Of a stretch of DNA of 40,000 nucleotides, positions 11,476 through 31,094 are shown piece by piece. A program made the translations under genes and the position numbers. Location of the stretch: assembly GCF_048265525.1 (NCBI RefSeq), contig NZ_JBLXBI010000002.1, positions 310,903 to 350,902 of the forward strand. The letters run 5' to 3'. The notes below the pieces were generated by a model, which worked only from the letters and a program-made list of their open reading frames with translations, had not been told where the DNA came from and ran no database searches. The DNA comes from Idiomarina sp. (GTDB taxonomy: Bacteria; Pseudomonadota; Gammaproteobacteria; Enterobacterales; Alteromonadaceae). Within the stretch, counting starts at the first letter, position 1. Each line of letters starts with the position of its first letter.

Positions 11476-11489
11476 TAAAGAAGTCCCAC

Positions 11490-12521: not shown

Positions 12522-13592
12522 TTAAATGTATAAAGAGATCAATTGTTCTCTTGATATATGCAAACCTCTATGCTCTAAGCCCGTTTTTCGTATTACGAAT
12601 AGTGCTTCTATAGCCTCTATAAGCTCTTTTCCGCCTCCATGGTGGAGTAATCTATGACAAGTTGGGCATAGGGCAACGATATTTTCAGGTACATCTATGT
12701 TAAACGTAAAATCATCTTGGTAACTTAACGGAACCAAGTGATGGGCTTCAACAAAATTCTCACCGCTGCTTTTGCTCTTAAAGGTCTTATGAGCGGGCTC
12801 CAATTGACAAAGGTATCCTGAGTTACGAAGACTAATTGAGGAAACGGCAACATTCCTTCGCCGGCTACCTGTATTAGAAAACTGATTTGGACTAGGCTTT
12901 GGAAGCGGTCCATCAGGTAAGTAGCACTGATGAGCTTTCTGAATATTTTTCTGAAAGGAGTCCTCAGTCTCAATCCCTATCGTGGTGAGCAGAGTTGAGC
13001 CATAGTACTCAACCAACACTCGATAAATAGAAAGAAGAGAGACTAAGTACTTATCGATTTGCGACCAAGAGAAGAGAGTGTTTACTTCAAAACTTTTACC
13101 TATAATATGCCCGGCTTCATATCCCTTACCACGTTCAAGACTGGCTCCTAAATCAGCCGAAACCTCGTAAGTAGAAAAATCATTGATTAAATGCTGAAGT
13201 TCCTCTCTAACAGAGCAAGCTCTATCCTTTAATGTTCTAAATTTCTCCGTCCTGTTCAACTTTTTTCCAATCGGTCTCTCGAAGCCTTGGTTTAAGCTTA
13301 ATAGAATTCTCTTCATGTCTTCCGAAAACAGAAGCGCGACGTAGTAACCACTTTTCGCTGAGTTTGTGACTCTGGCATCCATAAATGTAACTAAAGGGAT
13401 TTTGGGATAACGGTGATTTGGCTGGGCGATACATCCTTTTATTAGAAGCTCTTCACTACCCTGCAAAGCATTTTGAAAAGCAGTAGGCAACTCTTTCGAA
13501 AAAATCTTATAAAACTTATCGTTACTTGCAACAGTTTTGCCCTCTGTATAGGGGATATAGTCTCTACTTATTGCCTTTACAGTATCAAGCAT
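12522..13592 (-). CDS. DUF3578 (MrcB N-terminal-like) + HNH endonuclease; putative modification-dependent (type IV-like) nuclease
   Basis: The N-terminal signature is IPLVTFMDARVTNSAKSGYYVALLFSEDMKRILLSLNQG, the pattern of McrB-type DNA-reading DUF3578 domains. The C-terminal HNH is FVEAHHLVPLS...NIVALCPTCHRLLHHG. Confidence 0.8.
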   Translation of the reverse strand: MLDTVKAISRDYIPYTEGKTVASNDKFYKIFSKELPTAFQNALQGSEELLIKGCIAQPNHRYPKIPLVTFMDARVTNSAKSGYYVALLFSEDMKRILLSLNQGFERPIGKKLNRTEKFRTLKDRACSVREELQHLINDFSTYEVSADLGASLERGKGYEAGHIIGKSFEVNTLFSWSQIDKYLVSLLSIYRVLVEYYGSTLLTTIGIETEDSFQKNIQKAHQCYLPDGPLPKPSPNQFSNTGSRRRNVAVSSISLRNSGYLCQLEPAHKTFKSKSSGENFVEAHHLVPLSYQDDFTFNIDVPENIVALCPTCHRLLHHGGGKELIEAIEALFVIRKTGLEHRGLHISREQLISLYI

Positions 13593-14060: not shown

Positions 14061-15179
14061 ATGAGCAAACTATGTTACTTAAAGGAAAATGCGCTTAATT
14101 CCATTTGCCCTTATTTCACTATGTTTCCACTCGAGTACCCAATAAGACACTTGAAGAAGTTTAAAATGGGTAATCCAGTGGTAGTGGATCCTTTCTGCGG
14201 TCGAGGTACGACATTATTTGCAGCTAGAAAGTTAGGGCTTAATGCTTGGGGGATAGATACGTCTCCAGTTGCAACCGCTATAGCTAAAGCAAAGATGGCT
14301 AGTTGCTCTAAAGCGGATATATTAGAACTCGCGCGAGAACTCTTACAAAAGACTCCTAATGACGTACCGGAGAATGAATTTTTTAAAAGGTTATATTCCT
14401 CGTCAACTCTTGAAAGCGTTTGCGCGTTACGCGAAGGTCTTTTGTCAATAAATCAGGAAACAAATGCTTCAATAGTTCTCAGAGCTTTAACTCTAGGGGC
14501 ATTGCATGGACCTTTGAATAAGTCTATTGAGAATTCTATATACTTTTCAAATCAAATGCCTAGGACTTTCGCATCTAAGCCCGACTACTCGATCAAGTAC
14601 TGGTCTCAAAAGGGGCTCTTTCCGCCAAAAATAAATCCAATCGACGTCCTGAAAAGGAAGTTAGACAGGATTCCGACTTTTAATCATTCTTTAAACGGAA
14701 GTTATCATCAAGTAATAGAGGGAGATGCACAGTTAGAGTCGACAACTAACCAAATTAGCGATGATTTTTCGCTCGTCATAACGTCCCCTCCTTATTATGG
14801 GATGAAAACGTATGTGCAAGATCAGTGGTTAAGAAACTGGTTTTTAGGAGGGCCGCCAATAGTAGACTATACTTCCGGCCCTCAACTTGAGCACAAAGGT
14901 ACCGAAGGCTTTGCGAAGTCGCTCGGAAAAGTTTGGAGCAATATGGCAAATTCTAAAGCCAATAATTTAAAAATGTTTGTGAGGTTTGGCATAATTCCCT
15001 CGGCTAAGGTAGATGCAAAAAGTCTCATGCATATGTCGTTAGAATCTTCGTCAGCTAACTGGCGAATTATATCCACTCGGAGTGCTCACACAGCAGAAAA
15101 AGGAAAGCGGCAAGCGACTCAAATGCAATCTAAGTCTAATGCCGCAATTGAATACGACTTTCATATCGAGAGAATCTAG
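14061..15179 (+). CDS. DNA amino-methyltransferase (N6-A or N4-C), permuted motif order
   Basis: The AdoMet-binding region is FPLEYPIRHL...VVDPFCGRGTTLFAARKLG...GIDTSP, near the N-terminus. The catalytic SPPY (LVITSPPYYGMKTY) lies about 190 aa later. Confidence 0.85.
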   Translation: MSKLCYLKENALNSICPYFTMFPLEYPIRHLKKFKMGNPVVVDPFCGRGTTLFAARKLGLNAWGIDTSPVATAIAKAKMASCSKADILELARELLQKTPNDVPENEFFKRLYSSSTLESVCALREGLLSINQETNASIVLRALTLGALHGPLNKSIENSIYFSNQMPRTFASKPDYSIKYWSQKGLFPPKINPIDVLKRKLDRIPTFNHSLNGSYHQVIEGDAQLESTTNQISDDFSLVITSPPYYGMKTYVQDQWLRNWFLGGPPIVDYTSGPQLEHKGTEGFAKSLGKVWSNMANSKANNLKMFVRFGIIPSAKVDAKSLMHMSLESSSANWRIISTRSAHTAEKGKRQATQMQSKSNAAIEYDFHIERI

Positions 15180-18100
15180 CTACTAATACTGTTGGATCTC
15201 CAGTGCAAGGTAACATCCCTTGTCATATCGGCCGCGTTAACTTGGTAGTGAGTAGTGGCATTACAGTACTGGTATACATAATTTTTAATTGCTCTTGAAG
15301 TAATGACCACATCTAAGTCATCGGGTAAATGGTGAACCAACTCTTCGGATATGAACAGAACGGCTTTGCATTCGGCCCTAGAGATAGCAACATTGGTTCT
15401 ATTCAATTGCAATAGAAACTCTTCCTCTGCTTCGATAATAGATGGGTCGCCAACTCCAAACGCAACTAAAATAATATGTCGTTCGCCACCTTGGAAACGC
15501 TCTACTGTATCAATGGCCTCAACTATTAAAGTCGGATCATGGTCTGGAAAGAAGCCCAGTAGTTTTCTAAATATTAATGACTTCTGTGCTTTGTGCGGAG
15601 TTACAATTCCGATTACCTTTTTCCAGAAAACCTCCTTGGATAGGTTAGAAAAACTTGATTTTTCATCAATACTAGGCTCTGCACTTACATTGCGCCAAGC
15701 ATAATAAACATACTCTGCTACAATAGCCGCTTCAAACTCATTAGCCTGTGAACTTTTCCCATCTGGATAAGTTACAGCGGCTACTCTCTTTTCAGGATCT
15801 AGTGCTGATAGATAGAAACTCTCGTCGCTGCTGCAATCCGCCTGGGGATTAACAACGATACGCTTTAATTTCTGTTTAGCTTGTAACGTATCTTTATACC
15901 CAATATAGTGGCCAAAGTTAACTATATCTTGATTAGACCTGAAGTTAGTATTCAATGTTTGAGTACGAATATTGAACCGTTTTATTAGGTATTCTTGGAA
16001 ACTCCCAACAAGGTATTCCGCTCCTTTAGGCGGGCAGGCGGCGTGAATCGGGGGCATTTGAAGGTGATCTCCAAATACATTCAGACGAGCATTACTTGAT
16101 AAGCTAGTTAATACTAGAATGGCATTCGCAACATCAACTTGTGAACATTCATCAATAGCTATGTAGTCAAAGAGCTCAACATTAGAAGATTCTTCAAGCT
16201 CAGACTTCAATTTATGTACACTTTGAGGTGTAGCCACTGTGACCGTAATCTTTCCTTTTTCTCTACCTTTAAGCGAAGCGGCTAACTCACCTAACTCTTC
16301 GCCATCGCTTAAACATCTTTGGCCACCAAAAACCCGAATGTTTATATTCTCATAGTCATTTCGTTTTTCAAAAATTGATTTCCAAATCCCACCAGCTCTG
16401 TCTGACGCTAATAAATTAACCTCAATATTTAAACTCTCACCGAGAGAGTTAAAAATGGGTAATAGGCGAGCAACTAAGACTTCACATGCTCTATAAGTGG
16501 GTCCAGTTATCAGCATCCTACTTGAATCCTTTTCAATAGCCGATAGCTCTGCCTCTAAGGAAATTATATATTTAGCAACATCTGTTTTACCCGTTCCCGG
16601 AGGTCCCCAAACAACTGATAGTTTCCTTGTTAGGGAGTTAATAATCGCTTCTCGCTGATTCTCTTCAAGAGGAAAAGCACCATGGCGAGCCTCCATATCT
16701 CTTAGACTATCCTTAACTTGATCAATATTGTTTCTTACTGTAATTTCAGATAGTTTATCTGCTATCCAAAGAAAATTGGCAGCTGGTGTAACAACGCTTC
16801 TACCTGGATTTTTCTCTTTTGTAATACCTTGGGCAAGTAGAGCTTTCTGATCCGGAAAGGCTATGGGAGGATTACCAATATCAGCCAAACACTTTTTTAG
16901 TTTTGGAGTTAACGTATCCGTCGAGGTACCCAAGAGTGAAAAATTTTTTGATAAGTCTATGTCAGCTAGATTTTGAATTGAAAACGCGATATCTTCTGCT
17001 TTCATTGATGTATACTGAATGGCTATATATCCATCGACTCGATCAAATTTAACTAGTTTAATTCTTAAAAATGATCCGACCCTCATGTTAGGGTAGATCG
17101 AGTGGTCGATACTGAGGTTTTCGGGAATATTGCCGTCGAATATCTTTCCGAACTTATCCTCTGGGAAACCCGGAGATTGATCGGGTACGATGGTTAAAAA
17201 AGCGTCACCTTCTTTGATTTTAGAGTTCTTTGAATCCTCAGAAATTTTATATAATTTTTCTCTACTACGGCGTAACCCCCAGCTTTCAAACTTCTCTTGG
17301 ACAAACTTCGGGTCTTCCACTTCGTTCAAAACATGTATAGATTTATAAGAGGCTTCCAGCTCGTCTGCGGAACTAAAATAGCTTTTCTTGTTATCTATAT
17401 TTTCAATACTTGCACAAACTTCGGAAAATGCCATCCAAAGTTTTGAGTCTTGTGCCATTTTGTTATAGCTTTTCGCATCTCTCAGCTTAATCGGGGCTGC
17501 TTTTACTTTGAGTTGTTGCCTCAAATTAGCCCTTAGCTGCTTTGTTATCTTTTCAACTCCACTTACAAGCGTACACATAGTTCTATTCAGTTTGTCATAA
17601 ACTTCTTTATAATGTGGGGAGTCATTTTTATTCCAAATCTCATATATTCTTTCTTTTGGAATAGCGTCAGAAAATGGATCGCAATAATAGTCACTTACCT
17701 GAAAAAACTTTTGCTCATTTTCGGGTAGAATGGACTTTGCGACATTCAATATTGTATATGAATAAGGTACAGGGAGAGCCGCCATTTTCTGAAGACATTC
17801 TTTTACGAATGAGATCACTGGAACACTAGTTAACTCGGGGTGCTTATTCAACTCTTCAGGAGGAAAAAGCCATGATAATCCTTTAAAAGACTTGTCTTCC
17901 AATATTCGCCATAGATGCCTTCCTATAACCTTTGTTAAGAACTCGTATTGCCTAGGTTCCCAAAAGTATAAATGTGTAGTCGAATTCTTAACTTTGCTTG
18001 GGTCATTATATTTGTCTCTATTATTAGTATATTCGAAAATACTTTTTAGTTTGATTAAAAAACCCTTTAAGGCCTGAAACTCTTCTTCAGCTGTATTTTC

Positions 18101-19516
18101 GAGAGTCGTATAAGCTTGAGGCCTCCATAATTGGTAGTTCCCTTGAGATAATTGCTTCTCTCTATCAGCCATATAATCACGAGGTTCACTCCAGGAAGCG
18201 GACGTTGAAATTGATGATAATGTTCCAGTACTAGCATCAAAGTTAACCACTACGTATATACTACAATTTGAAAACTTCGGAATTTCAGTACTCACTCTAT
18301 GTGAATTAAAAGTCGTTCCTTTCTCCAAAGAGCGAGCTCTTTCCGGAAGAAAGTCACGCTCTTTTTTCAAAGAAACGTGAGCTTTAAAAGCATTACTTTG
18401 TGGGTTCAATGATGCTAGCGTTGAACAACTTTGAACGTTCTCATCTTCTAGGGTCCGTCTCATACCCTTAGTAATAAACGCTATCCGGCTTAGGTGATCT
18501 GTATTTTTTGATTTCAAATGACAATGGTCGCATCCAACTTTTTCTTTATGCTCTTCTTTAAGCCAAGGTTCATATGCTAACCAATCACACATAGAACAAG
18601 ATGCTTCTATATGCCAATCTAGGCTTCTCCAATCCAACGTACCGATCACTCTTGGGATATCTTTCAATAAAAATTTTCTTAATGTGATAAGGAACTGGTC
18701 GAAAGGAATAGGAGCTAGCTCGTTGTTAATAAGTTCAAGCTTTTCAGTTTCTTGAGCTTCAAGAATGAAATCCTGATTGTAACTTGCTTGATTAGTAACA
18801 CTTCCTTTAACCCAGAGTGCACACTGGTCAGTCACCACATACTGTTTGTGTAAGTTATGAAAGTGAATCCAATTAGAAATCACCAGGGTATAAAGAACTA
18901 CTTCAGCAGCATAGCTAGGATTGCCATGTTCCGAGTTTTTAACATCTATAACTGAAAGCCTAATTCGCTCATCATCGCTATCAATTGGCTTCGTGGTACC
19001 GTCGACAAGAACCTCGCTCTGAAAGGGGTTTCCACTTTTGTTTATGACTTCTTCGCTACTTAAAACTCTTAGGATATCGGGCCGAAAATCAGCTAAAGTA
19101 GGTAAGGTTTTAAATGCGTTATCCTCAGCTTTATAACCTATGTTTACGTAGAAAAATTGATCTAGCTGGTCTGTTTTTATCGGGGTTTCAATTAAGAACG
19201 AACCTACGTCCAAGTTTCTTTCCTTCAGCCAATCGACCAACTTTTCGTTTGAAGGTTCATGACTACTAGATTTTAATAATCCATCTAACCTATAAGTTTT
19301 ATCGGGAAACATATTAGATAAAAGGTCGTACTTGGCTTTTTCTAATTTTATACCTTCGGCCATTGTTTGAGCTATTTGAGGCCTTGCCTTTATCGGTTCT
19401 GGTACAGCATCTCCGTTCGGGAAAACTTTATCACTTCGATATAGAGAAAATAATAAAAATTTATCGCACTGTGTTCTAAAATACTGAGAAACTGTCTTTT
19501 TTTCCAGTCTTGCCAT
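15176..19516 (-). CDS. Large PD-(D/E)xK nuclease + Cys-cluster + SF1B (Upf1/DNA2-like) helicase; Nhi-like
   Basis: 1446 aa. The N-terminal region has RPDILRV ... LSVIDVKNS (PD...DxK) and CSMCDW...GCDHCH. The C-terminal helicase motifs are GPPGTGKT, AIDECSQ, TNFRSNQ, VTPHKAQ, VERFQGGE and NVAISRA. An AAGGA motif lies upstream of the ATG at 19516. Confidence 0.85.
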   Translation of the reverse strand: MARLEKKTVSQYFRTQCDKFLLFSLYRSDKVFPNGDAVPEPIKARPQIAQTMAEGIKLEKAKYDLLSNMFPDKTYRLDGLLKSSSHEPSNEKLVDWLKERNLDVGSFLIETPIKTDQLDQFFYVNIGYKAEDNAFKTLPTLADFRPDILRVLSSEEVINKSGNPFQSEVLVDGTTKPIDSDDERIRLSVIDVKNSEHGNPSYAAEVVLYTLVISNWIHFHNLHKQYVVTDQCALWVKGSVTNQASYNQDFILEAQETEKLELINNELAPIPFDQFLITLRKFLLKDIPRVIGTLDWRSLDWHIEASCSMCDWLAYEPWLKEEHKEKVGCDHCHLKSKNTDHLSRIAFITKGMRRTLEDENVQSCSTLASLNPQSNAFKAHVSLKKERDFLPERARSLEKGTTFNSHRVSTEIPKFSNCSIYVVVNFDASTGTLSSISTSASWSEPRDYMADREKQLSQGNYQLWRPQAYTTLENTAEEEFQALKGFLIKLKSIFEYTNNRDKYNDPSKVKNSTTHLYFWEPRQYEFLTKVIGRHLWRILEDKSFKGLSWLFPPEELNKHPELTSVPVISFVKECLQKMAALPVPYSYTILNVAKSILPENEQKFFQVSDYYCDPFSDAIPKERIYEIWNKNDSPHYKEVYDKLNRTMCTLVSGVEKITKQLRANLRQQLKVKAAPIKLRDAKSYNKMAQDSKLWMAFSEVCASIENIDNKKSYFSSADELEASYKSIHVLNEVEDPKFVQEKFESWGLRRSREKLYKISEDSKNSKIKEGDAFLTIVPDQSPGFPEDKFGKIFDGNIPENLSIDHSIYPNMRVGSFLRIKLVKFDRVDGYIAIQYTSMKAEDIAFSIQNLADIDLSKNFSLLGTSTDTLTPKLKKCLADIGNPPIAFPDQKALLAQGITKEKNPGRSVVTPAANFLWIADKLSEITVRNNIDQVKDSLRDMEARHGAFPLEENQREAIINSLTRKLSVVWGPPGTGKTDVAKYIISLEAELSAIEKDSSRMLITGPTYRACEVLVARLLPIFNSLGESLNIEVNLLASDRAGGIWKSIFEKRNDYENINIRVFGGQRCLSDGEELGELAASLKGREKGKITVTVATPQSVHKLKSELEESSNVELFDYIAIDECSQVDVANAILVLTSLSSNARLNVFGDHLQMPPIHAACPPKGAEYLVGSFQEYLIKRFNIRTQTLNTNFRSNQDIVNFGHYIGYKDTLQAKQKLKRIVVNPQADCSSDESFYLSALDPEKRVAAVTYPDGKSSQANEFEAAIVAEYVYYAWRNVSAEPSIDEKSSFSNLSKEVFWKKVIGIVTPHKAQKSLIFRKLLGFFPDHDPTLIVEAIDTVERFQGGERHIILVAFGVGDPSIIEAEEEFLLQLNRTNVAISRAECKAVLFISEELVHHLPDDLDVVITSRAIKNYVYQYCNATTHYQVNAADMTRDVTLHWRSNSISS

Positions 19517-20053: not shown

Positions 20054-23000
20054 ATGAAATTACTGCGTGAGAAGTACTGGAAGTTAACTCCTTCGATGGA
20101 ACTGCTCTCAGATAAACTAGTTCTTACACAAGCATGGAAAAAATCTCACGCCTATATTCGTGCTCGCAATTGGTATGCCGACACCTTAGCTCTAGATGTT
20201 TCAGCGTTGACCATAGAGGAGTCTGTTGAAAAGTGGAGCAGAGACCTAGGTCCGGGTCTTAATACTCACAAAGTAGAGTTGATACTCGCAGGCAAAAGTG
20301 AATCGTGGGGGTTTGATGGAGATGAGGGATGGCAGCCAACTGGACTAATTAAACGAGCGCACGAGTCATCATCTAACTCAAAAATAAAGGCTCGTGAGGA
20401 TCGTCCGCCGTTGAGGCCTCTTTCCCACTTATCTGTAAGAGATCAAACATATGCCACTGCAGTTATGTTATGTGCTGCTGATTTTGTGGAGAGTAGACAA
20501 GGGGAGTGTACAGAAAATCCATTTGTAGACCGACAGAACCAAGTTTACAGTTATGGCAACCGCCTCCTATGTGATTGGCGTACTCCTCACGATGCCTGGT
20601 TTAGGTGGGGGAACTCTGAAACTTATCGAAAATTTTTTGTTGACTACCAGAGCTTTCTAAGTCGATCTAGTATAATTGGTCAGCATGTCCAGAAAAGTGC
20701 TTCCGGTGGGCGAGAAGTATATGTAGTAAGCTTGGATTTAGAGTCCTTCTTTAACTCTATTGATTTGGAGCATTTAAATAACCTTCTTCAGGAGGTGTCA
20801 TGTGGTGAAGCACAAGGTATTGATAGTGATTTCTGGTCTACAACAAAGAGAATTTTGACTTGGAAGTGGAATGATAAAGAGGTTAGAAAAGCTGAGAGTT
20901 TAGGGCTAAAAAATGTTACAAAGGGACTACCGCAAGGCTTGGTTGCGGCTGGCTTTTTTGCAAATGTTTATATGCTCAATTTTGATGAAGCTATATCTTC
21001 TAAGCTAAATCAAAGTGTAGGAAAAGAGAAATCTATTTGGCTACATGACTATTGCCGTTATGTTGACGACTTGAGGCTTGTTATCAGTTCGGACATTAGT
21101 GATACAGAGCAGTTAAAAGATATTATCGATGATTTTGTCAGTCGCCTATTAAAAAATACTTGTAATGCAACATTAAAAATTAATAAAGATAAGACAAAAA
21201 TAAACTCTGTTACTGATTTAGCGAACGCTAGCAGTATATCTAACCGATTAAAGGCAGTTCAGCAAGACCTCAGCGGCCCTAATGATAGAGAGAGCCTTGA
21301 AACAACATTAGGTATTCTAGAAAACTTTTTAACAACACCGACTGTAAAAAGCGAAAAAAGCCATGTTTTATCTGACGAACATGAGCAGCGTTTACTCTCA
21401 TTGACTCAATACGATCATGACGTTAGAGCAGACACCTTAAAAAGGTTTGCTGCAAATCGTCTTGAGTCAGTTGTTCGAAAAAAACGACGGATATCCTCAT
21501 CAAGTGATAGTGACACTAACGCTCAGTTATTGTCGGAAGCTGAAAATGAGTTGCTGGCTAAAAAGCTTATCCATGCTTGGACAACGGATCCTTCACTAGC
21601 GCTTTTGCTCAGGAAGGCAATGGAAATATATCCGGACGCAGAATTGTTCGAGCCAATACTGCAAGTGATATTCCAGCGAAGTTCATTTGGTAAAAATCCA
21701 CTTATGAGAGCGCGAAAAAACAAAAATGAATCAATTAACCAGTATGTAATGGATTTTTTGCTAGCCGACATGTTCCGCTGCGGAGTTGATTTTGTTTACT
21801 ATTTTGACAAAATGGATTTCCCCTCCAGTTTAGAGCCTAAGTCGTTACTAGAGCTTTTAGCGAGGTTTGCTGTAAAGACAGTTAACAGTAGGCTTAGGAA
21901 TGTTTCCTTTGTTAACCGGCAAGCATTAATGCTTTTGGCTTCTGTGAATCGACCGACTTTAGCTAGTAACATTAAAAGAAATATCGGCACTCGCGAATCC
22001 TCGGTTGAAGGGCTTCAAGAGCTCACTCTACAAAAAGAACTTCTTCGAATTTTATCTGGCTTAGACATAAAGTACCATCGCCAAACCTCAGTTTTATTTG
22101 AGATTGCTAGCCAAATCACAGGGCATTACGATAGTTATTCAAGACGATTTTTAGAAACCGCAACATCTCATGAAAACGAAGGTAGTTTTCACATTAAGCT
22201 TCTACCATTCGCAAAGAGAGGGGGCTTATTTTGGGATAATATTTGGGCTGATTTGGAAAAAAATCGGAATGATTACGGTGAAGCTTTAGAAAACCTAAAG
22301 TGGGCTAGGCCGTGTGGCTCTCAAATACTTTTAGGTAAGAAGCAATCACTTTTTAATCTTATTACGTCGGAAAGTCATGCTTTCGAATACGAGCAGTCGC
22401 TTATAAAGCTTGCAAAAGCACTATTTGAAAGATTTTGTGATGAAGACGATTTTAACCCCCCTCCTTTGTCAGATATTATTGTAGCTCTAGATGACAACTC
22501 CAACAATTGGAACACCCTTTACCGCCCCTCAAGTGACTTATATATAGAGCAGAGTAGAAAAAAGCTTAAAAGATCCGTAGATCCCCGCTATGCCATACCA
22601 GAATGGATAGATGATACTACAGAGAAGCGGCTAGTATATTGGATTGGAATGGTATTAAGAGCGGCTGCCCTTGGCTCACCAGATTATACTGGTAACCTTT
22701 GGAATAATAGCAAAATAGCTGCATACCGGGGAGTTAAAGCCACATGGTTTAAACGGCGTATGGCCATGATGCACTCACCTGAATCGATTATTGGTGAAGA
22801 TGCAACTATTTCTGATTGGTTCTCAGAGTTCTTAATGAAGTGTCTCCAGTGGCCTGGTTTCGAGGTAAATAAAATCCAGCATTCAGATATCGCCAGTGCA
22901 AATAATATATCGGATGTTATTTCTGTTATTAAAAATCGGATTAAGAAACTAGACTCATTGTATTGTGAGATCTCTGATACACCTGGTTTACCGACTAGAA

Positions 23001-23899
23001 TAGGTCCAAACCTAGATCTGAAGAACTTTAGAATAGTCACAGTTCAACCGTTACTTCCTAAGCCGGAGTGGTTTATAAACGACATGAAGCTTGACCGCTC
23101 GGAAGTTAAACCCTTACACCGTGAGCATATTGCATCCGTCTGCAGCTTAGTTTTAAAAACGCTAGAAGCAAAATCGTTGGCGACAGGAACTAAAGATGAA
23201 CGCTTTGCAAACATTATAGTTTTTCCTGAGACTTCCGTTCATATTGATGACCAAGACTTAATAAGAAGTTTGGCAGACAAAACTAAGTCTATAATATTTG
23301 CAGGAATGGTGTTCACTGAGAAAGATAGCAAATTAGTAAATTTTGCTAGATGGTTCATTCCTAATTACCGAGGGACCGAACGTACCTGGATGCTCCGTGA
23401 CCAAGGAAAACAGAATCTTATACCATTTGAAGTCTCGAATGGAGTAAACCCTTACAGACCATGTCAGCATTTTCTCGAAATGTTTGATCAAAACAATGAG
23501 TCGCGTTTGATTACCGGTGCGATTTGCTATGATGCCACGGACATAAAGCTCTCAGCAGACCTGAGAGATAAGTCTGACCTGTTCATTATTTCTGCTTATA
23601 ACCAAGATGTGGCGACTTTTGATAATATGGCTAAAGCTCTACATTGGCATATGTATCAGCATGTGGTTATTGCTAATACAGGTATTTATGGTGGCTCCAC
23701 CATTCAAGCTCCATACAAGCAGTCCTACGATAAAATAATCGCACATGTTCACGGAGCAGGCCAAATTGCTATAAATATGGCGGATATTGACCTTGGTGCA
23801 TTTACTAGAAGTTATACAAAGTATAAAGAAATTAAGTCACAGCCTGCAGGTTTCGAACGTGATCAACGTCAATCAAGCTTTAGCCTTAAAAAGAGGTAA
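20054..23899 (+). CDS. Reverse transcriptase fused to C-terminal nitrilase (C-N hydrolase) domain; DRT type 1 / UG1-like
   Basis: 1281 aa. The RT motifs are YVVSLDLESFFNSI (A), GLPQGLVAAGFFAN (B) and YCRYVDDLRLV (C, YVDD). The C-terminal nitrilase-type Glu-Lys-Cys context is IIVFPETSVH ... ITGAICYDATD. Confidence 0.85.
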   Translation: MKLLREKYWKLTPSMELLSDKLVLTQAWKKSHAYIRARNWYADTLALDVSALTIEESVEKWSRDLGPGLNTHKVELILAGKSESWGFDGDEGWQPTGLIKRAHESSSNSKIKAREDRPPLRPLSHLSVRDQTYATAVMLCAADFVESRQGECTENPFVDRQNQVYSYGNRLLCDWRTPHDAWFRWGNSETYRKFFVDYQSFLSRSSIIGQHVQKSASGGREVYVVSLDLESFFNSIDLEHLNNLLQEVSCGEAQGIDSDFWSTTKRILTWKWNDKEVRKAESLGLKNVTKGLPQGLVAAGFFANVYMLNFDEAISSKLNQSVGKEKSIWLHDYCRYVDDLRLVISSDISDTEQLKDIIDDFVSRLLKNTCNATLKINKDKTKINSVTDLANASSISNRLKAVQQDLSGPNDRESLETTLGILENFLTTPTVKSEKSHVLSDEHEQRLLSLTQYDHDVRADTLKRFAANRLESVVRKKRRISSSSDSDTNAQLLSEAENELLAKKLIHAWTTDPSLALLLRKAMEIYPDAELFEPILQVIFQRSSFGKNPLMRARKNKNESINQYVMDFLLADMFRCGVDFVYYFDKMDFPSSLEPKSLLELLARFAVKTVNSRLRNVSFVNRQALMLLASVNRPTLASNIKRNIGTRESSVEGLQELTLQKELLRILSGLDIKYHRQTSVLFEIASQITGHYDSYSRRFLETATSHENEGSFHIKLLPFAKRGGLFWDNIWADLEKNRNDYGEALENLKWARPCGSQILLGKKQSLFNLITSESHAFEYEQSLIKLAKALFERFCDEDDFNPPPLSDIIVALDDNSNNWNTLYRPSSDLYIEQSRKKLKRSVDPRYAIPEWIDDTTEKRLVYWIGMVLRAAALGSPDYTGNLWNNSKIAAYRGVKATWFKRRMAMMHSPESIIGEDATISDWFSEFLMKCLQWPGFEVNKIQHSDIASANNISDVISVIKNRIKKLDSLYCEISDTPGLPTRIGPNLDLKNFRIVTVQPLLPKPEWFINDMKLDRSEVKPLHREHIASVCSLVLKTLEAKSLATGTKDERFANIIVFPETSVHIDDQDLIRSLADKTKSIIFAGMVFTEKDSKLVNFARWFIPNYRGTERTWMLRDQGKQNLIPFEVSNGVNPYRPCQHFLEMFDQNNESRLITGAICYDATDIKLSADLRDKSDLFIISAYNQDVATFDNMAKALHWHMYQHVVIANTGIYGGSTIQAPYKQSYDKIIAHVHGAGQIAINMADIDLGAFTRSYTKYKEIKSQPAGFERDQRQSSFSLKKR

Positions 23900-23984
23900 C
23901 GGGCAATGAGCGGAATATTTCTTACTTACCTGAATTGGGTTCGTTAAATGATGACAGGGTATTTTCTGAAAGCAGGAGCGTTAA

Positions 23985-25580
23985 GTGTTAAAGAATGACT
24001 TCTATTCAGCTGCTGTAATAAGGTTGGTAACTTTACAAAAGAGAAGAGGCCAGGCGGGTCAGTTACTTTTTGCAACTATATCACTGCTTCCAAGGGGTAG
24101 GCCAATACCGTATCCAATGAGTGGGATAGATAGATGCTCTGTCGGAAAAACCGGTGAAACTGTTTTTTTCCGCCGCACCCTTATGAACGTTCAAGAAGCA
24201 ATAGACTGGTATCGAGGACTTGGCTCCGGTGATGAGAAGTCTCCTATTCCTTCCAAGCAGGAAGAGCGCAGTGATAAGTACGATGGAATTAAAATTGAAG
24301 TATCGGAGCTGTCAGATGACCCTGCGTGGCCTCATTTAGGGCTACCGATTGAGAAGGGGCTATTGACTCATTTTTCTGAGCGAAGCCACCCGGCCCCTTT
24401 TATCGGCAATCACTCTGCGCGGATTCACCGACGTTTCGGTAATCCTAACGGTTTTGATTCATTGCTAGCTGATGATAAGGCTGTTGCCTTTATTTCTAGG
24501 CGTATTCACCTCAATGTTCGACTTTACAGGGAGTACCTCGGGAGTGCGGCTTTGGTAGCCCCTGATCCTGTTCTTCAGCAAATTGACTGCTTTATGATCC
24601 CTGCTTCGGGGGAAAGAGGTGAACGTATTTTTTACCGGTTTGTTCCCCGTGCTGGTGAATCCGTTGAAGGTTTGAAAGTAACTACTTTCGATGAACAGGG
24701 ACATTTACTAACAGACTTCAAAACACATAATATTACAGAGAGTGGCATTTTAGATATTGATAAAGGCTATTGCATTGGCTCATACGGCTATGTGGTGTCT
24801 CATCAAGAGCATGGGATTCTGGCATATAGCCCCCCCTCTCGGTTTATGCGCCAGATGAATTTTTCGATGCACGCAAGTACTCGAGAAGTTAGAAAAATTA
24901 GTGTTCCAATTAATGAGTCGGATAATGCTCCTCGAATTGAATACTCAGCAGCCCCATCTAAAACGCCTATTTCCCAGAGTATAATAGGAAAAACGCCAAA
25001 CATACCGAACAACAGTGGCCGTGTCACCGCTGCAGAAGCATATCGAGATAGTCTTGCAAGAGCAGAGTACTACGGTCAGCGCTGGTTTTCTGATGGCTCT
25101 CGCGAGGAAGCTATGCGTTTTATTCAAAGTGAATTACGACAGGCTAAATCAAGGGTCATCATCGCAGATCCTTACCTTGCAGGTTTGCAATTAGGCCAGT
25201 TTTTATATGCTGTTAACCCGGAAACGACGGGAGTGACCCTATTAACCTCTAATCTTGCGTTTAAGTCTAGAAAAGAAGAACTTTCAAAAATTGATAATTT
25301 CGACGAGAAGCTCGCAGAATTAGAGAAATTTGGAAAAATCACAGCAAATGTACATGTACTTCTGTCACCTATTTTGCATGATCGTTTTATGGTCATTGAC
25401 GATTCGGTATGGTTTCTTGGGAATTCATTGAATACCTTGGGGGATAAAGCCTCTCTCATCGTAAAGTTACCCAACCCAAATGAGGTTATTGAAAAGCTCA
25501 AAGGTATGCTAAAACAAGCCGCTTCATTTAAAGATTATAAAAGCGCTCAGCTTAAGACTAAAAGACGCAACGATGATTAG
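23985..25580 (+). CDS. Unknown N-terminal domain (~360 aa) + C-terminal PLD-like domain with HxR variant motif
   Basis: GTG 23985 is preceded by AGGAG 6 nt upstream. The C-terminus has RVIIADPYL ... VTLLTS ... LHDRFMVIDDSVWFLGNSLN (His codon at 25377). Its stop overlaps the next ATG by 8 bp. Confidence 0.65.
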   Translation: MLKNDFYSAAVIRLVTLQKRRGQAGQLLFATISLLPRGRPIPYPMSGIDRCSVGKTGETVFFRRTLMNVQEAIDWYRGLGSGDEKSPIPSKQEERSDKYDGIKIEVSELSDDPAWPHLGLPIEKGLLTHFSERSHPAPFIGNHSARIHRRFGNPNGFDSLLADDKAVAFISRRIHLNVRLYREYLGSAALVAPDPVLQQIDCFMIPASGERGERIFYRFVPRAGESVEGLKVTTFDEQGHLLTDFKTHNITESGILDIDKGYCIGSYGYVVSHQEHGILAYSPPSRFMRQMNFSMHASTREVRKISVPINESDNAPRIEYSAAPSKTPISQSIIGKTPNIPNNSGRVTAAEAYRDSLARAEYYGQRWFSDGSREEAMRFIQSELRQAKSRVIIADPYLAGLQLGQFLYAVNPETTGVTLLTSNLAFKSRKEELSKIDNFDEKLAELEKFGKITANVHVLLSPILHDRFMVIDDSVWFLGNSLNTLGDKASLIVKLPNPNEVIEKLKGMLKQAASFKDYKSAQLKTKRRNDD

Positions 25581-26196
25581 TAAACTTTCCTCTCGAGTTT
25601 CGCTTGCGCCAGAGGCAGAGCGACCATTTCCAAACAAAGAAATTCTTTGGGGGTCACAAGAAGGAGGACAGTCACTCTTTCCTACAACCGCCGCTGCTTA
25701 TGAGCGAAAGTATTCTAGTGACGCTGTACCACTTGAAAAATTTTGCCACGCAGTGGCAAATGCCCAAGAGCGAGTGTGGATGGTTGATGAATACTTACTG
25801 ATGCCTGATAGAGGGAATCCAGTAGAACGAATTGATAAAATCCTAGAGTGGCTACCTTTATGGCTTGATGCGAGTGACATTAGGCTACTGACGAAGCCTC
25901 ATCAGGAAATTAGTAAAGATGATCTGAGAAGGTTTTACAATCATGCTATGGCTATAAACAGTCATGATGTAAGGCGCACTAAAGAATGCCGCATTGAAGT
26001 TAGGATGCACCTTACTAAGGATTGTGACTTTGTCCATGATCGCTTTGCTATTATTGATGACGAGCTTTGGCATTTTGGTGGAACTGTCGGTGGGTTTCAT
26101 TCTAAGGTTAGCGCTACTAGTCGCGGATGGAGAGCAGAAGATCACGGTGCCATCAGGTTTTTTGAGGAAATTTGGGATGCTGGTGTTAGAAAATGA
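25573..26196 (+). CDS. Stand-alone PLD-like domain protein (HxR variant), paralogous to the C-terminus of the preceding ORF
   Basis: 207 aa with RVWMVDEYLL ... IRLLTK ... VHDRFAIIDDELWHFGGTVGG (His codon at 26035). There are ATGATTAG and ATGA overlaps with the neighbouring ORFs. Confidence 0.65.
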   Translation: MISKLSSRVSLAPEAERPFPNKEILWGSQEGGQSLFPTTAAAYERKYSSDAVPLEKFCHAVANAQERVWMVDEYLLMPDRGNPVERIDKILEWLPLWLDASDIRLLTKPHQEISKDDLRRFYNHAMAINSHDVRRTKECRIEVRMHLTKDCDFVHDRFAIIDDELWHFGGTVGGFHSKVSATSRGWRAEDHGAIRFFEEIWDAGVRK

Positions 26197-28184
26197 ATAA
26201 CAAATGGCCACTCGAACGTCGCAATGAAAAGGTAGAAGCAGGTTCAAGTCCGTTGGCTAAAGGTGTCCCGGACTTTGTAAGCTTAATAAATGTAATAGAT
26301 GAAGCTGAAGAGTCAAGTTTTATTGAAGTAGTAAACTGGATTGTGAAGCAAGGGGAGAGCATCTCTGAATTAGAAAAACGAATCGTTGAATTTGCGGATG
26401 AAATTGAAGTTACCCTTGAGGAAGAAAAACCTGCACTTATGGCGCTAGCTTGTGCTGTAGCTCTTGCGAGGAATCCTTCAATCGACACTTGGATTAAAGT
26501 TAATGCGCTAAAATGCGAGTCATGTGAGATTGAAAGTTGGCTGAGTGCAGCCATGGTAGCGTATGTTGAAATATATCCCCCAGCATGTGGTCCTTATAAT
26601 TCACTTGCTAAAAGTGTTTTTTCGGCACTAGATAATTTTTCATTAAAATCTAAGTCAGAGCGTGTGAATAAAGAGAGAGAAGGGGTTTGGTTCTATTGGA
26701 ATGATAGGCAAGATAAACTAGAAGAAGTCTGGTTTGGGTTGAGGAGCTGGTCAGGTTTTATTAACTATAGAGAGGAACTTCCATTATTCGAGGTATTCTA
26801 CAAAATCAGCCCGCATGAATTCATAGCTACAATATCAAGATCCACAAATCCTTATTTATTGAATGCATTGTGCTTAGCAGCTGGCATAGGAGCATTTTAT
26901 CCAAAGTTCTCCGAGTGGAGAAATATAATTGGCGCTGCGCCTATTGCTTTTGAGGCGAATGGAGAATGGAATGGTTCTGTTCTGTTACCTCTACTGCTTG
27001 TTGAAGCTCGCGATCAATTATTACAGTCGCGAGACCCCGTTGGTCCAAGTTTGACTCATGACGAGCACGATGGGCTTGAAAGGGAAATAAAGAAAACAGC
27101 GAAAAAAATAGTAACTGCTTTGGCGGAACGTAAAGATTATTTAGTTATCTTCTCTCGTTGGTGGCCTTGGCTAATGAGACAAATTCTAGCAAGTACCGAA
27201 GAAGAGTTAACCGATGTTAAGTCTTCGGCGTTTTCGGATAATGTGCTAATGAACGAGATTGGTGAAAAGCTTAAAGGCAAGTCTATATCTCAAGTAGTTT
27301 CGAGTAGTGTGCCTTTATGGGAGGTATGGTGCCATTATTGTGCTCTAGCATTTTTTTCTCATGAAGAACATATTCAAACTCCAAACTGGAAAGTTTTTGT
27401 CGACGAGTGGAGACTTTTACCTGAGGACTGGGGGGGCGATAAAGGTAAAGCTTTACGTGATCACTCTAGGTTAATTATAGCTTCAAATAGAGAGACTCCC
27501 GGGATTGCTGTAAACTTGCTTGCCTATCCGATTGCGCAATCCTCTTTTCCATTTAAAGTATGGGACGATCTATGGAATAACGCTTATGTCTTGCGTGAAA
27601 TTGTTGAATTCGGGGACTTGGATGCAATTGAAGATGAATATAGCTCACGCTCGGAAGCAGGCCGCCTCTTGCTGCTATTATTTAAAATAGGCCTAGCAAT
27701 ATTAGACCAAATAGCAGTCGAAAGTCCCGATGAAGACAGTATCGAAGCGAGAACTGCCGCCAAACTATTTAATACTCTTTACTTTGCTGCAAGTGAAATG
27801 CGAGAAATCGATAGTACTTTGAATCATGACAAATGGTTTCAAATGGTGCAGCACTTAGTGATTAGGAGAGTTATATGGGAGCCCGCCTTTAAAGACGAAG
27901 GTACTTCGTTAAACTTCCAAGTTTTCAAATCAGAAGATGTTCCGACCGTCTCATACAGTCTTTTAAAAGAAAAAAGTGACCCAACAAGACTGATAGCCAT
28001 TTTACAATCTCTTTTGCTCAATACTGAGAGTTCACGGTTAAGAAATGAACTCAGTTCAGCATCAATTGATGTTTCCGTTATTATAAAGTCGATAAGATTG
28101 CTGAATGAATATCACCCAAATAAGTACCCTGTTGATAAATCAGAGTTAAGCAAAATAGAAAAACTTCTGGGGGAGGCCAATTAA
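26193..28184 (+). CDS. Large Trp-rich, predicted helical protein of unknown function
   Basis: This 663-aa uninterrupted ORF is translationally coupled (ATGA) to the preceding gene. I could find no recognisable catalytic or nucleotide-binding motif. Confidence 0.65.
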   Translation: MNNKWPLERRNEKVEAGSSPLAKGVPDFVSLINVIDEAEESSFIEVVNWIVKQGESISELEKRIVEFADEIEVTLEEEKPALMALACAVALARNPSIDTWIKVNALKCESCEIESWLSAAMVAYVEIYPPACGPYNSLAKSVFSALDNFSLKSKSERVNKEREGVWFYWNDRQDKLEEVWFGLRSWSGFINYREELPLFEVFYKISPHEFIATISRSTNPYLLNALCLAAGIGAFYPKFSEWRNIIGAAPIAFEANGEWNGSVLLPLLLVEARDQLLQSRDPVGPSLTHDEHDGLEREIKKTAKKIVTALAERKDYLVIFSRWWPWLMRQILASTEEELTDVKSSAFSDNVLMNEIGEKLKGKSISQVVSSSVPLWEVWCHYCALAFFSHEEHIQTPNWKVFVDEWRLLPEDWGGDKGKALRDHSRLIIASNRETPGIAVNLLAYPIAQSSFPFKVWDDLWNNAYVLREIVEFGDLDAIEDEYSSRSEAGRLLLLLFKIGLAILDQIAVESPDEDSIEARTAAKLFNTLYFAASEMREIDSTLNHDKWFQMVQHLVIRRVIWEPAFKDEGTSLNFQVFKSEDVPTVSYSLLKEKSDPTRLIAILQSLLLNTESSRLRNELSSASIDVSVIIKSIRLLNEYHPNKYPVDKSELSKIEKLLGEAN

Positions 28185-28384: not shown

Positions 28385-28426
28385 GCGTAGCGGGTGATTA
28401 AGAAGACGATAAATCACCTGCTACGC
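28385..28426 (+). terminator. Strong stem-loop between convergent genes (15-bp stem, 12-nt loop), no U-tract
   Basis: GCGTAGCGGGTGATT (28385-28399) pairs with AATCACCTGCTACGC (28412-28426). There is one G-U pair in a plus-strand transcript. It lies 200 nt after the 663-aa ORF stop. Confidence 0.35.
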
Positions 28427-28497
28427 ATACCCACAAATAGTAATCGTTATCTCTTTGCTCGTTTTGATGGACATTGGGGCATTTCTTAAAGATTTCC

Positions 28498-29868
28498 TTA
28501 CCCTTTCATTTCTTTTTTAACGTTAGTTGAATCCCCAGAGGAAGGCTTCTTCTGCTCTTCATCAAGCCCCACAACAATTTGTTTAATTGCTCGATCTCGT
28601 TTTGGTTCACCCAAAATCATGAAAGCTGCGACTTGAAATGCATCCATGTCATCCTTTTGAGCTATAACTCTTTGATATGGGCTTTGTTGGAGGTATGATT
28701 CAATGCCGGCTATCATAGCATCATCTTGCTCCGTGTTTTCTCGACCTTCGGTTTTATCATTAGCAGGGGCAATACCTCCACCTGGACCTCCATCGTCTGG
28801 AAGTGGCGATATATCCCTTCCGTCGCCGATTAGAAATCCATGTTTATGGAAAATAGGTAGGAAGAACTTTTCTGACTCTGCAACATCAGCAGTAAATAAA
28901 CCAGAGAATAGAGCCAGCGCTTGGTCTATTGGTGGAGAAGCATGCGCATGTTGCCTTATTCCCCAACAGTTGATAGACGACAAACAAAACATTGATAAAT
29001 GCCTTGTGTTTTTCATTCGTTCTTTTTCAACAAATTCGAACTCATTGTCTGGCCAATCCGCATCAAGAAAGTTATTCGATGCTTCATATTGGTTCCGAAA
29101 CGATATGGCTGGTTTAAATAGGATTTGGAAGTCTCGTATATAACTTCGTTGGTTGAAGCATAATGCGCGATGATATTGGAAATGCCAGACGCAAAGGCGT
29201 TCCCATCGGGTGAAACTAATGACTCTGTGCTTAACTTCTTCATTGGTTAGAAGTCTGTTATCCTGCGAACCTGCGCCCTCCTCTAGCAAATTAAACAGTT
29301 GCATTTGGTAAATGACACCTTTAATTAGCTTAGAGTAAATTGGCCAAGTCTCGTTTACGTGAATTGGCAGAGCCTTTCTTTCTTGTAACTCTAGTAGTCT
29401 CAGTACGAATATTATGATAACCGCTGATGCATCAGCTTCATAGTCAATCTCATGTAGAATGTTAGGCGCAAGAGTGGATAACCCTCTATGGTTTTGTTCA
29501 CCCATTCCTTGGCAGCGGTGAACTATTTCGTGAACAATAAAGTTATCTACAGTCTCGATTAATTCATCCTGGTCTAGTTTTCCTTCGTTTGCCATGTGAA
29601 CAAACATTTGTCGCATTTCGTTGCTTAAGAGCAATCTTGCGGGGCTTCCCACTTGCTGCCCTCTGATATCTATCCGTCCACTACCGCCGGAGCTAGGTTC
29701 ATCAGACACGTCGTAATGGAAACCATTTAAGCTGGTTTTAAGTTCATGACCAAACCAAGCAACAACGCCTATAACGAATTCATTTGGTATTTTTCGCCCG
29801 AAGTTAGAAATAATTTTAGCTCTTTCTTTAATGGTGTCATTTATCTGTTTTAGGTTGAATTTTGCCAT
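28498..29868 (-). CDS. Hypothetical protein with HExxH zinc-metallopeptidase-like motif
   Basis: 456 aa. FIVHEIVHRCQG is followed by ILHEIDYEAD (a possible third ligand). The C-terminal region is Gly/Pro-rich and acidic. The family is not recognised. Confidence 0.55.
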   Translation of the reverse strand: MAKFNLKQINDTIKERAKIISNFGRKIPNEFVIGVVAWFGHELKTSLNGFHYDVSDEPSSGGSGRIDIRGQQVGSPARLLLSNEMRQMFVHMANEGKLDQDELIETVDNFIVHEIVHRCQGMGEQNHRGLSTLAPNILHEIDYEADASAVIIIFVLRLLELQERKALPIHVNETWPIYSKLIKGVIYQMQLFNLLEEGAGSQDNRLLTNEEVKHRVISFTRWERLCVWHFQYHRALCFNQRSYIRDFQILFKPAISFRNQYEASNNFLDADWPDNEFEFVEKERMKNTRHLSMFCLSSINCWGIRQHAHASPPIDQALALFSGLFTADVAESEKFFLPIFHKHGFLIGDGRDISPLPDDGGPGGGIAPANDKTEGRENTEQDDAMIAGIESYLQQSPYQRVIAQKDDMDAFQVAAFMILGEPKRDRAIKQIVVGLDEEQKKPSSGDSTNVKKEMKG

Positions 29869-30644: not shown

Positions 30645-30708
30645 TGTAAGTTAAAAATGTACACTTTCACTTAAAAGTGTACATTTTCAATTATCTTTAA
30701 AACTTACA
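30645..30708. repeat. tnsA-distal transposon end with internal repeats (candidate TnsB-binding sites)
   Basis: There are two near-palindromic motifs, AAAAATGTACACTTT (30653-30667) and AAAAGTGTACATTTT (30673-30687). An internal TGTAAGTT (30645-30652) is inverted relative to the terminal AACTTACA (30701-30708). Confidence 0.4.
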
Positions 30709-31094
30709 TGGAGCGTTCAGACGGCTTTACCGAACCTACCATGGTCAAAGACTATTTAACCTCGCAGCTGCGTCATCAGGGCCGCGAAGTCTTTGCTATT
30801 TTACTGCTGGACAGCCAGCACCGGCTGTTACGTTACGAAGAACTGTTTCAGGGCACCATTAATGCCGCGCCGGTGTATCCACGTGAGGTAATAAAGCTGG
30901 TTATGCAGTATAATGCGGCAGCGGTTATCCTCGCACATAATCATCCATCGGGTGTTGCAGAGCCCAGCCAGGCTGACCAGAGAGTCACCGAACGAGTCAA
31001 AAAAGCCCTGACTTTAATTGATGTGGCGTTGTTGGATCATTTCGTAGTGGGCGCCGGCGATCCAATTTCTTTTGCAGAGCGCGGATTGTTGTAG
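30708..31094 (+). pseudogene. radC 3' fragment (JAB/MPN domain), separated from its 5' part by the transposon
   Basis: It encodes (M)ERSDGFTEP...[13 protein letters not shown]...[25 protein letters not shown]...FAERGLL, the conserved RadC C-terminal domain. The apparent ATG is formed by the last transposon base plus the TG of the duplication. Confidence 0.88.
30709..30713. repeat. 5-bp target-site duplication TGGAG (copy 2)
   Basis: It lies immediately outside the element end at 30708 and is identical to 3868-3872. Confidence 0.9.

Follow-up and report, generated by a model that had tools for sequence, protein, structure and literature searches.

In the genome of Idiomarina sp. (Alteromonadaceae) we analysed a stretch of 40,000 nucleotides (NCBI RefSeq assembly GCF_048265525.1, contig NZ_JBLXBI010000002.1, positions 310,903 to 350,902 of the forward strand; hereafter the window, with all coordinates counted from its first nucleotide), in which three overlapping open reading frames (ORFs), ORF1, ORF2 and ORF3, form a compact cassette at 23985–28184. 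The trio is a real, conserved module and a good candidate for a defence system, though not one without relatives: we regard it as a multi-gene variant related to the Juno family, most likely directed against phages. Its features are as follows.

23974..23978 (+), Shine–Dalgarno sequence AGGAG, 6 nucleotides 5′ of the ORF1 GTG, read directly
23985..25580 (+), ORF1, GTG start, 531 residues, candidate subunit A, a VPA1262-N-type protein
23985..25100 (+), N-terminal region of ORF1, residues 1–372, one or more putative beta-rich domains, fold unassigned
25101..25580 (+), C-terminal phospholipase D (PLD)-like domain of ORF1, residues 373–531, predicted from Foldseek and the PADLOC family PDC-S05
25167..25175 (+), first-strand motif D395-P-Y397 of ORF1, with D395 in 100% and Y397 in 96% of 112 diverse members
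25377..25433 (+), ORF1 motif H465-D-R467-x4-D472-x6-G479-N-S481-L-N483
25573..25580 (+), overlap ATGATTAG, the ORF2 start overlapping the ORF1 stop
25573..26196 (+), ORF2, 207 residues, putative second PLD-like half-site protein
25786..25794 (+), first-strand motif D72-E-Y74 of ORF2, D72 being invariant in 15 homologues
26035..26094 (+), ORF2 motif H155-D-R157-x4-D162-x6-G169-G-T-V-G-G174, without Asn
26193..26196 (+), overlap ATGA, the ORF3 start overlapping the ORF2 stop
26193..28184 (+), ORF3, 663 residues, predicted all-alpha solenoid, candidate sensor or scaffold

The three frames, their start codons, both overlaps and the AGGAG placed 6 nucleotides before the GTG have exactly the coordinates given in a first-pass annotation made from the letters alone, and arithmetic on the ORF coordinates returns the same His codons, at 25377 (H465 of ORF1) and 26035 (H155 of ORF2). 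The GTG start is further supported because the N-terminus MLKNDFY aligns with homologues beginning MLN-TDFY. The genes are not chance reading frames: each is conserved as a protein in many genomes, and the ATGA junction is recurrent. It is also found in the related loci L001, L002, L003, L004, L005, L012 and L014, a four-nucleotide overlap being kept at most junctions, and the ORF1/ORF2 junctions of related loci are likewise overlapping or abutting. Opposite-strand ORFs in the region of the trio are short shadows of at most 122 residues. ORF1 and ORF3 each have a 100% identical NCBI protein, encoded on a 457-kb contig. No Rfam family or tRNA was detected within the window, and no near-identical DNA in the E. 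coli genomes and plasmids searched.

Scanning one genome per species for the pattern yielded 16 loci with an ORF1 relative. Homologues of ORF2 and ORF3 follow directly downstream, in the same order, in all 16, which are spread over Beta-, Gamma-, Delta- and Alphaproteobacteria, and trios were also found on an IncF plasmid of Klebsiella variicola and a conjugative plasmid of Burkholderia glumae, so that the supposition of a single conserved three-gene unit held when co-occurrence was examined. Identity to the window proteins across the 16 loci is 30–66% for ORF1, 29–73% for ORF2 and 22–55% for ORF3. Further trios are present in Ferrimonas balearica, Azospira oryzae, Halomonas and metagenomic contigs, some of them in small chromosomal islets without transfer genes. 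In Azospira oryzae PS the trio (L021, 4692–7587) lies in a TniB/TniQ element and is immediately preceded by an HxsD-like gene together with two radical-SAM genes, a further uncharacterised cargo cluster. Decayed copies occur as well: a 5.5-kb insertion interrupts ORF1 in L011, an insertion sequence element cuts it in Halomonas (L023), and in L015 it is frameshifted. Such decay in some copies is common for costly accessory genes. The 104 genes flanking 14 of the loci include Gabija (GajA/B), mads, ApeA, IetA, AriA, PDC-S01, resolvases and integrases. Altogether, the distribution fits a small mobile accessory module that is often, but not always, found in defence islands.

ORF1 scores 377.2 bits against the NCBIfam model NF040700 (VPA1262_N_dom; cutoff 80), which it covers from position 2 to 477 of 478. 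It has 261 homologues at 90% clustering, and an exhaustive profile search returned 976 clusters at 50% identity with E<=1e-3, 207 of them at E<=1e-30. Among the best 150 of the 976 representatives lengths range from 131 to 604 residues, full-length members having about 500–600, and none comes near the ~1026 residues of Juno. Relatives of ORF1 are absent from the viral contigs searched, and none of the three proteins has a match in PHROGs. Residues 1–372 match nothing in Pfam, PADLOC or PHROGs; their conserved positions, among them W75, Y76, W115, P138, F139, H148, G186, P193, P195 and G277, are mostly aromatic, Pro or Gly in 87–112 diverse members. Profile searches of the Protein Data Bank with ORF1 (12- and 87-sequence profiles) and with ORF2 gave nothing significant, the best matches being a transthyretin-like protein (E 0.17) and NucT (E 0.49), and Pfam PLDc_2 stayed below threshold (16 and 19 bits against a cutoff of 27). 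In Foldseek, the C-terminal domain, which is the better-predicted part of the AlphaFold2 (AF2) model, matched NucT, Zucchini, Nuc, NgoAVII-R, FAM83 and TrmB/TrmBL2 with E 3e-6 to 2e-3, the target template-modelling (TM) score being 0.5–0.63 for the small nucleases. The C-terminal domain of ORF1 is thus predicted to adopt the PLD alpha/beta fold.

The active-site signature of this domain departs from the canonical form. Neither ORF1 nor ORF2 has H-x-K-x4-D-x6-G-S/T-x-N; both carry H-D-R instead, followed by G-N-S-L-N in ORF1 and G-G-T-V-G in ORF2. The elements quoted in the earlier annotation are all present, namely RVIIADPYL, VTLLTS and LHDRFMVIDDSVWFLGNSLN in ORF1 and RVWMVDEYL, IRLLTK and VHDRFAIIDDELWHFGGTVG in ORF2, as are the replacement of Lys by Arg in both copies and the loss of Asn from ORF2. 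Among 112 representatives of 50%-identity clusters of ORF1, conservation reaches 97% for His, 99% for D466 and R467, 100% for D472 and G479 and 98% for S481. In 15 homologues of ORF2, at 25–70% identity, H155, D156, R157, D162, G169, G173, G174, H176 and R184-G-W186 are invariant, and the two Asn positions are consistently G/A and G. The DPY of ORF1 has its counterparts in VDEY of ORF2 and LIDNY of a Bacteroides RhuM-family protein, which ends with the same signature (LIDNY ... SHDRFLIVDDAVYHIGASLKDLGKK, as compared with IADPY ... LHDRFMVIDDSVWFLGNSLNTLGDK in ORF1). Because the motif is near-invariant across the homologues of ORF1 and ORF2 and is shared by the RhuM protein, the H-D-R form is the hallmark of a distinct PLD-like clade and not a local oddity.

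Profile–profile alignment (hhalign) of ORF1 382–482 with ORF2 59–172 gave 94.4% probability and E 8.5e-8, and ORF2 is accordingly a distant, PLD-like paralogue of the C-terminal domain of ORF1; it is this alignment that links ORF2 to the PLD fold. The proposal that ORF1 and ORF2 carry PLD-like domains which are paralogues and share an H-x-R form of the motif is therefore upheld, including the fold of the ORF1 domain as judged by Foldseek of its AF2 model. The extent of the paralogy had been overstated: the alignment spans about 115 residues of ORF2 and not essentially all of it, and residues 1–58 have no counterpart in ORF1.

ORF3 is confidently modelled by AF2 (predicted local distance difference test score, pLDDT, 84.1; predicted TM score 0.80), entirely as helices, and is predicted to form an all-alpha solenoid. 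Foldseek searches of the PDB and BFVD returned only generic HEAT/ARM-type matches with TM <0.3. As had been remarked, no motif is recognisable, ORF3 having no match in Pfam, NCBIfam, PADLOC or PHROGs, yet the description of the protein as an orphan does not hold, since 173 homologues were found at 90% clustering. In every locus ORF3 has the lowest identity of the three proteins and is thus the fastest-diverging. A Walker-A-like GEKLKGKS in ORF3 was considered and dismissed, as it is not conserved in the A2 consensus.

Looking beyond the trios, the commonest pairing among the relatives sampled is that of ORF1 with an ORF3-like protein, ORF2 being separate, fused or absent. Two-gene forms, in which ORF1 is accompanied by a protein of 594–734 residues and there is no ORF2, were found in L026, L032, L037 and Methylorubrum pCMU01. 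One fused form was encountered, a 791-residue partner next to an ORF1 relative (L031, 6702–9077). Residues 21–149 of this fusion correspond to an ORF2-type domain (VHDRLAIVDDEFWHFGATVGGLH...SRGW; hhalign 99.2%, E 1.4e-19) in which the H/D/R residues of ORF2 are kept, and the rest matches the ORF3-like family (E 2e-14). A natural fusion of this kind is an argument for ORF2 and ORF3 working as a single physical unit. The gene pairs of L026 (7834–10038) and L031 sit between the type IV secretion system (T4SS) genes VirB4/TrbE, TrwC and TraG of conjugative elements, so that two-gene and fused forms alike are housed in T4SS/relaxase modules. The motif of ORF1 is identical whether ORF2 is present, fused or absent.

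The large partners of the trio, two-gene and fused forms belong, by profile comparison, to one family with ORF3. Direct hhalign of ORF3 with the family of the 734-residue protein is suggestive only (E 7e-4, 26% probability, collinear motifs), and bridging proteins match both profiles: L032 g2 (1e-12 and 4.5e-22), B. glumae g3 (1.7e-12 and 2.3e-37) and L030 g3 (3.6e-25 and 7e-9). When the Methylorubrum and Bacillus partners were compared with ORF2 and ORF3 by single-sequence hhalign, the result was negative; the 659-residue Methylorubrum protein was linked to the ORF3-like family by hidden Markov model (HMM) search. An invariant LHDR in the 734-residue partner family was examined as a vestigial PLD motif and rejected, the downstream pattern being unfit and hhalign against ORF2 giving E 0.56. 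Unrelated partners exist too: the Bacillus wiedmannii plasmid p536 (L025, 4999–9936) encodes proteins of 714 and 418 residues, and the metagenomic locus L034 (5001–8162) proteins of 232 and 293 residues, none of which detectably resembles ORF2 or ORF3. It may be, therefore, that the A subunit can also pair with partners of other types.

In the window, the trio is part of a block of about 40% guanine plus cytosine (GC), extending from ~3.9 kb to 31–32 kb between flanks of ~50% GC. The block opens with TnsA, TnsB, TniB/TnsC and TniQ and carries a cargo of defence genes, in agreement with the Tn7-like, defence-island setting recognised at the outset. The cargo genes upstream of ORF1 include:

10990-13592 (-) and 14061-19516, a RexB/RexA-like pair, an MrcB_N-HNH type IV restriction-like gene, an N6/N4 methyltransferase and a superfamily 1 (SF1) helicase
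20054-23899 (+), Drt1a, a full-length UG1 reverse transcriptase fused to a nitrilase, PADLOC 1338 bits

The SF1 helicase, of 1446 residues, is convergent with the N6/N4 methyltransferase and has DpdJ/Mko-like matches. Drt1a is the immediate upstream neighbour of ORF1, in the same orientation, with a gap of 85 nucleotides. The idea that the trio is an accessory of this reverse transcriptase–nitrilase was rejected, no Drt1a homologue being present within 10 kb in any of the 16 genome loci, and the trio is therefore independent of this neighbour. No sigma-70-like promoter being detected in the gap, co-transcription of Drt1a and the trio is possible in this genome, though the two are unlinked elsewhere.

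Several other features of the island deserve mention. Directly after TniQ lies an ORF of 610 residues (8650–10482, +), for which Pfam, PADLOC and PHROGs gave no match; it could encode an additional target selector, or else belong to the cargo. Convergent with ORF3 is the gene of a 456-residue protein (28498–29868, −) with an HExxH-type motif, VHEIVHRCQG, whose PADLOC matches, to effectors of the SAVED-peptidase type, are only weak (E 1.7e-5). Pfam, NCBIfam and PHROGs assign this protein to no family, and it is not a conserved neighbour of the trio in other genomes. Between these two convergent genes, an inverted repeat of ~15 bp (GCGTAGCGGGTGATT ... AATCACCTGCTACGC, 28389–28435), spotted by eye and uncalled by the scan, may be a bidirectional terminator lacking a T-run. 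A RadC-like JAB gene (30708–31094, +; Pfam E 5e-45) and the return of GC to ~50% at ~31–33 kb probably mark the far end of the Tn7-like element; a search for Tn7 terminal repeats identified none.

What might such a module do? Since its relative Juno protects against phages and one PDC-S05 member is reported to do so, since it is carried among the defence genes of a Tn7-like element and since it has defence neighbours elsewhere, we infer a defence function; nuclease activity, heterodimerisation and a sensing role are inferred as well. Single-HKD PLD nucleases, such as Nuc, are homodimers that build one active site from two chains. In our working model, ORF1 would combine its beta-rich N-terminal region with a PLD-type phosphodiesterase half-site in which the Lys of the HKD motif is replaced by Arg. 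From the same domain clade, ORF2 would contribute the other half-site, an asymmetric one, and be physically attached to ORF3; this fast-evolving alpha-solenoid would serve as sensor or scaffold. Recognition of a component of the invader by the solenoid or by the N-terminal region of ORF1 would allow or activate the composite PLD active site of ORF1 and ORF2, which might then cleave nucleic acid, either that of the invader or, in abortive infection, the cell's own. The chances are about even that the three genes make up one self-contained, horizontally mobile module, most likely defending against phages or other invading DNA, that works in this manner.

The comparison of the different forms supports a two-part machine, with ORF1 as subunit A and the ORF3-like solenoid as subunit B, which here has its own half-site in ORF2. 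For the trio, a composite ORF1/ORF2 site is the simplest reading, plausible although not established, and it is supported by the strict conservation of His, Asp and Arg in ORF2. The first-pass annotation had gone further and suggested an obligate heterodimeric centre. The heteromeric part of that suggestion is favoured by the ORF2–ORF3 fusion and by the invariant H/D/R of ORF2. The obligate part is weakened by relatives that lack ORF2 and have the same ORF1 motif; a composite site is therefore not obligate for the family, and ORF1 presumably can act without ORF2. The nearest fold matches make nucleic acid the most likely substrate; a trigger, and a solenoid that senses it, are suggested by the architecture. 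A bolder generalisation may be ventured, which we consider rather unlikely to hold as a whole. Seen in this way, the trio would be one variant within a large modular family that has not been named (over 200 ORF1 clusters at 50% identity and E<=1e-30), in which a conserved A subunit, with its N-terminal region of unknown nature and its HxR-PLD half-site, is joined by a rapidly evolving solenoid B, maybe with an asymmetric HxR half-site of its own. Completion of the nuclease site would require the solenoid to sense an invader, immunity would then result from the induced assembly of a heteromeric PLD site, and the A subunit would have Juno as a fused relative.

A number of observations weigh against the working model. 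ORF1 fails the full-length Juno model NF040699 (49.2 bits, cutoff 325), and ORF2, ORF3 and ten partner proteins have no match to it at E<=10. The AF2 model of ORF1, built on a shallow alignment, has an overall pLDDT of 53.7 and mostly remains below 60 in the N-terminal region. We know of no demonstration of catalysis by an H-x-R version of the motif. In other genomes many of the genes around the trio have housekeeping roles, and in the window the promoter scan found no sigma-70-like promoter in the 85-nucleotide gap between Drt1a and ORF1. Two further points of this kind, the unchanged ORF1 motif of two-gene relatives and the presence of non-catalytic proteins among the best Foldseek matches of the ORF1 domain, lead directly to alternative explanations.

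The active enzyme might be a homodimer of ORF1, with ORF2 as a regulatory pseudo-half-site that is held by ORF3 and caps ORF1 until the trigger arrives. This is a serious rival, if on balance an unlikely one: it would account for the two-gene relatives that keep the motif of ORF1 in the absence of ORF2 and for the loss of both motif Asn residues from ORF2, and single-HKD nucleases such as Nuc are homodimeric. The invariance of H155, D156, R157 and D162 at 25–70% identity, and their retention in the fused form, would nevertheless be unusual for a purely inhibitory decoy. Should the domains instead be non-catalytic ligand- or DNA-binding modules, like TrmB/TrmBL2 or FAM83, the complex would bind without cleaving. 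TrmBL2, TrmB and FAM83 do top the Foldseek list, the canonical Lys is missing from both copies and Pfam PLDc_2 is sub-threshold. Yet such a role, which we deem improbable, would leave the near-absolute conservation at the positions of HKD catalysis (His, basic residue, Asp, Gly, Ser) hard to reconcile, and Arg could supply the same positive charge. Catalysis on phospholipids, with membrane damage or remodelling as an effector of abortive infection, is very improbable, given that the closest compact fold matches are the single-domain nucleases NucT, Zucchini, Nuc and NgoAVII; the PLD superfamily does include phospholipases and cardiolipin and phosphatidylserine synthases, and an engineered phospholipase D is ranked 24th in the list of fold matches.

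A different kind of objection concerns the beneficiary. The module could serve the mobile element and not the host, in competition between plasmids or integrative and conjugative elements, in exclusion or addiction, or as a counter-defence during transfer. The two-gene and fused variants inside T4SS/relaxase modules and the trios on conjugative plasmids and Tn7-like elements are what such a role would lead one to expect. However, defence systems are themselves typical cargo of these elements, some trios lie in chromosomal islets devoid of transfer genes, and the fused relative Juno has a phage phenotype, so that we consider this explanation quite unlikely. The reading of the trio as a host defence module with a composite ORF1/ORF2 site is the one that we retain.

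New defence candidates of this general kind are common. If confirmed, this one would add a multi-subunit branch to the Juno/VPA1262 defence family, named only in 2026, in a tractable split version in which effector half-sites and putative sensor are on separate proteins. The HxR variant of the PLD motif, also found repeatedly in the RhuM/PDC-S05 proteins of restriction–modification loci, would likewise gain a function. With natural forms that are split, fused or lacking ORF2, the family offers ready comparisons for the assembly and regulation of PLD active sites.

How does the trio compare with known systems? Neither PADLOC 2.0, Pfam and NCBIfam nor the literature searched has a name for it, and in that literature the trio, a multi-gene system with a VPA1262 N-terminal domain and the locus tags of the homologues are all unmentioned. 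The earlier statement that it matches no named system must nonetheless be abandoned, ORF1 belonging to NF040700 (377 bits) and the HDR domain matching PDC-S05. Menshen (NsnABC) was considered and discarded: NsnC reached no better than E 0.01 (13.5 bits), over the PLD-like region, and NsnA and NsnB gave no match.

Defence proteins in which an effector is coupled to a solenoid or repeat sensor include DSR2, with its SIR2 and HEAT-like domains, and Avs proteins with tetratricopeptide repeat sensors. The trio shares with them the logic of its architecture, a conserved enzymatic effector with a rapidly diverging helical-repeat partner; fold searches with ORF3, in contrast, found no sequence or specific fold relationship. 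With Nuc, NucT, BfiI, Zucchini and the R protein of NgoAVII it would have in common a compact PLD fold with one motif per chain and an active site expected to be formed by two chains. It differs from these single-HKD nucleases by the change of Lys to Arg in both copies, by the absence of the Asn residues from ORF2, by a sequence similarity that is below family thresholds, and by encoding two distinct chains where they are homodimers of one chain type.

A closer link in sequence is provided by the PDC-S05 HMM of PADLOC, which matches residues 355–505 of ORF1 (E 1.2e-11) and ORF2 (E 8.4e-5), in both cases only over HMM positions ~160–300 of about 300. A PDC-S05 member with a RhuM domain is reported to protect E. 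coli B against T7, T5 and T4, 10- to 1000-fold (bioRxiv 10.1101/2024.09.26.614923), and RhuM-like proteins had earlier been proposed as toxins embedded in restriction–modification loci (PMC3710099). The HDR variant PLD-like domain is common to both groups. The PDC-S05/RhuM proteins are, however, single proteins of ~290 residues with an N-terminal RhuM (often ORF6N) domain and no solenoid partner, and RhuM PF13310 matches neither ORF1 nor ORF2 (as compared with 5.7e-24 for the Bacteroides RhuM protein). When the PLD half was searched against plasmids by tblastn at E<=10, RhuM/ORF6N proteins were found and no 'VPA1262 family protein'.

The closest comparison is with Juno, the full-length VPA1262 family of ~1026 residues (NF040699), a single-gene anti-phage system described in an August 2026 preprint (bioRxiv 10.64898/2026.08.01.741415). 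There, full-length Juno proteins of P. agglomerans and V. parahaemolyticus protected E. coli; the preprint presents no mechanism or domain analysis, and its search for homologues required at least 70% coverage (bioRxiv 10.64898/2026.08.01.741415), so that its survey would not count this trio. Our own comparison was made through the NCBIfam models. Where Juno is one protein of ~1026 residues, the trio has a separate ORF1 of 531 residues, a second PLD-like protein and a solenoid of 663 residues. ORF1 corresponds to the N-terminal half of Juno, including the PLD-like domain, with positions 281–555 of NF040699 aligning to residues 269–517; as only this half is shared, the phenotype of Juno transfers to the trio through that half alone. 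Like Juno, finally, the trio resides in mobile defence or 'armory' islands.

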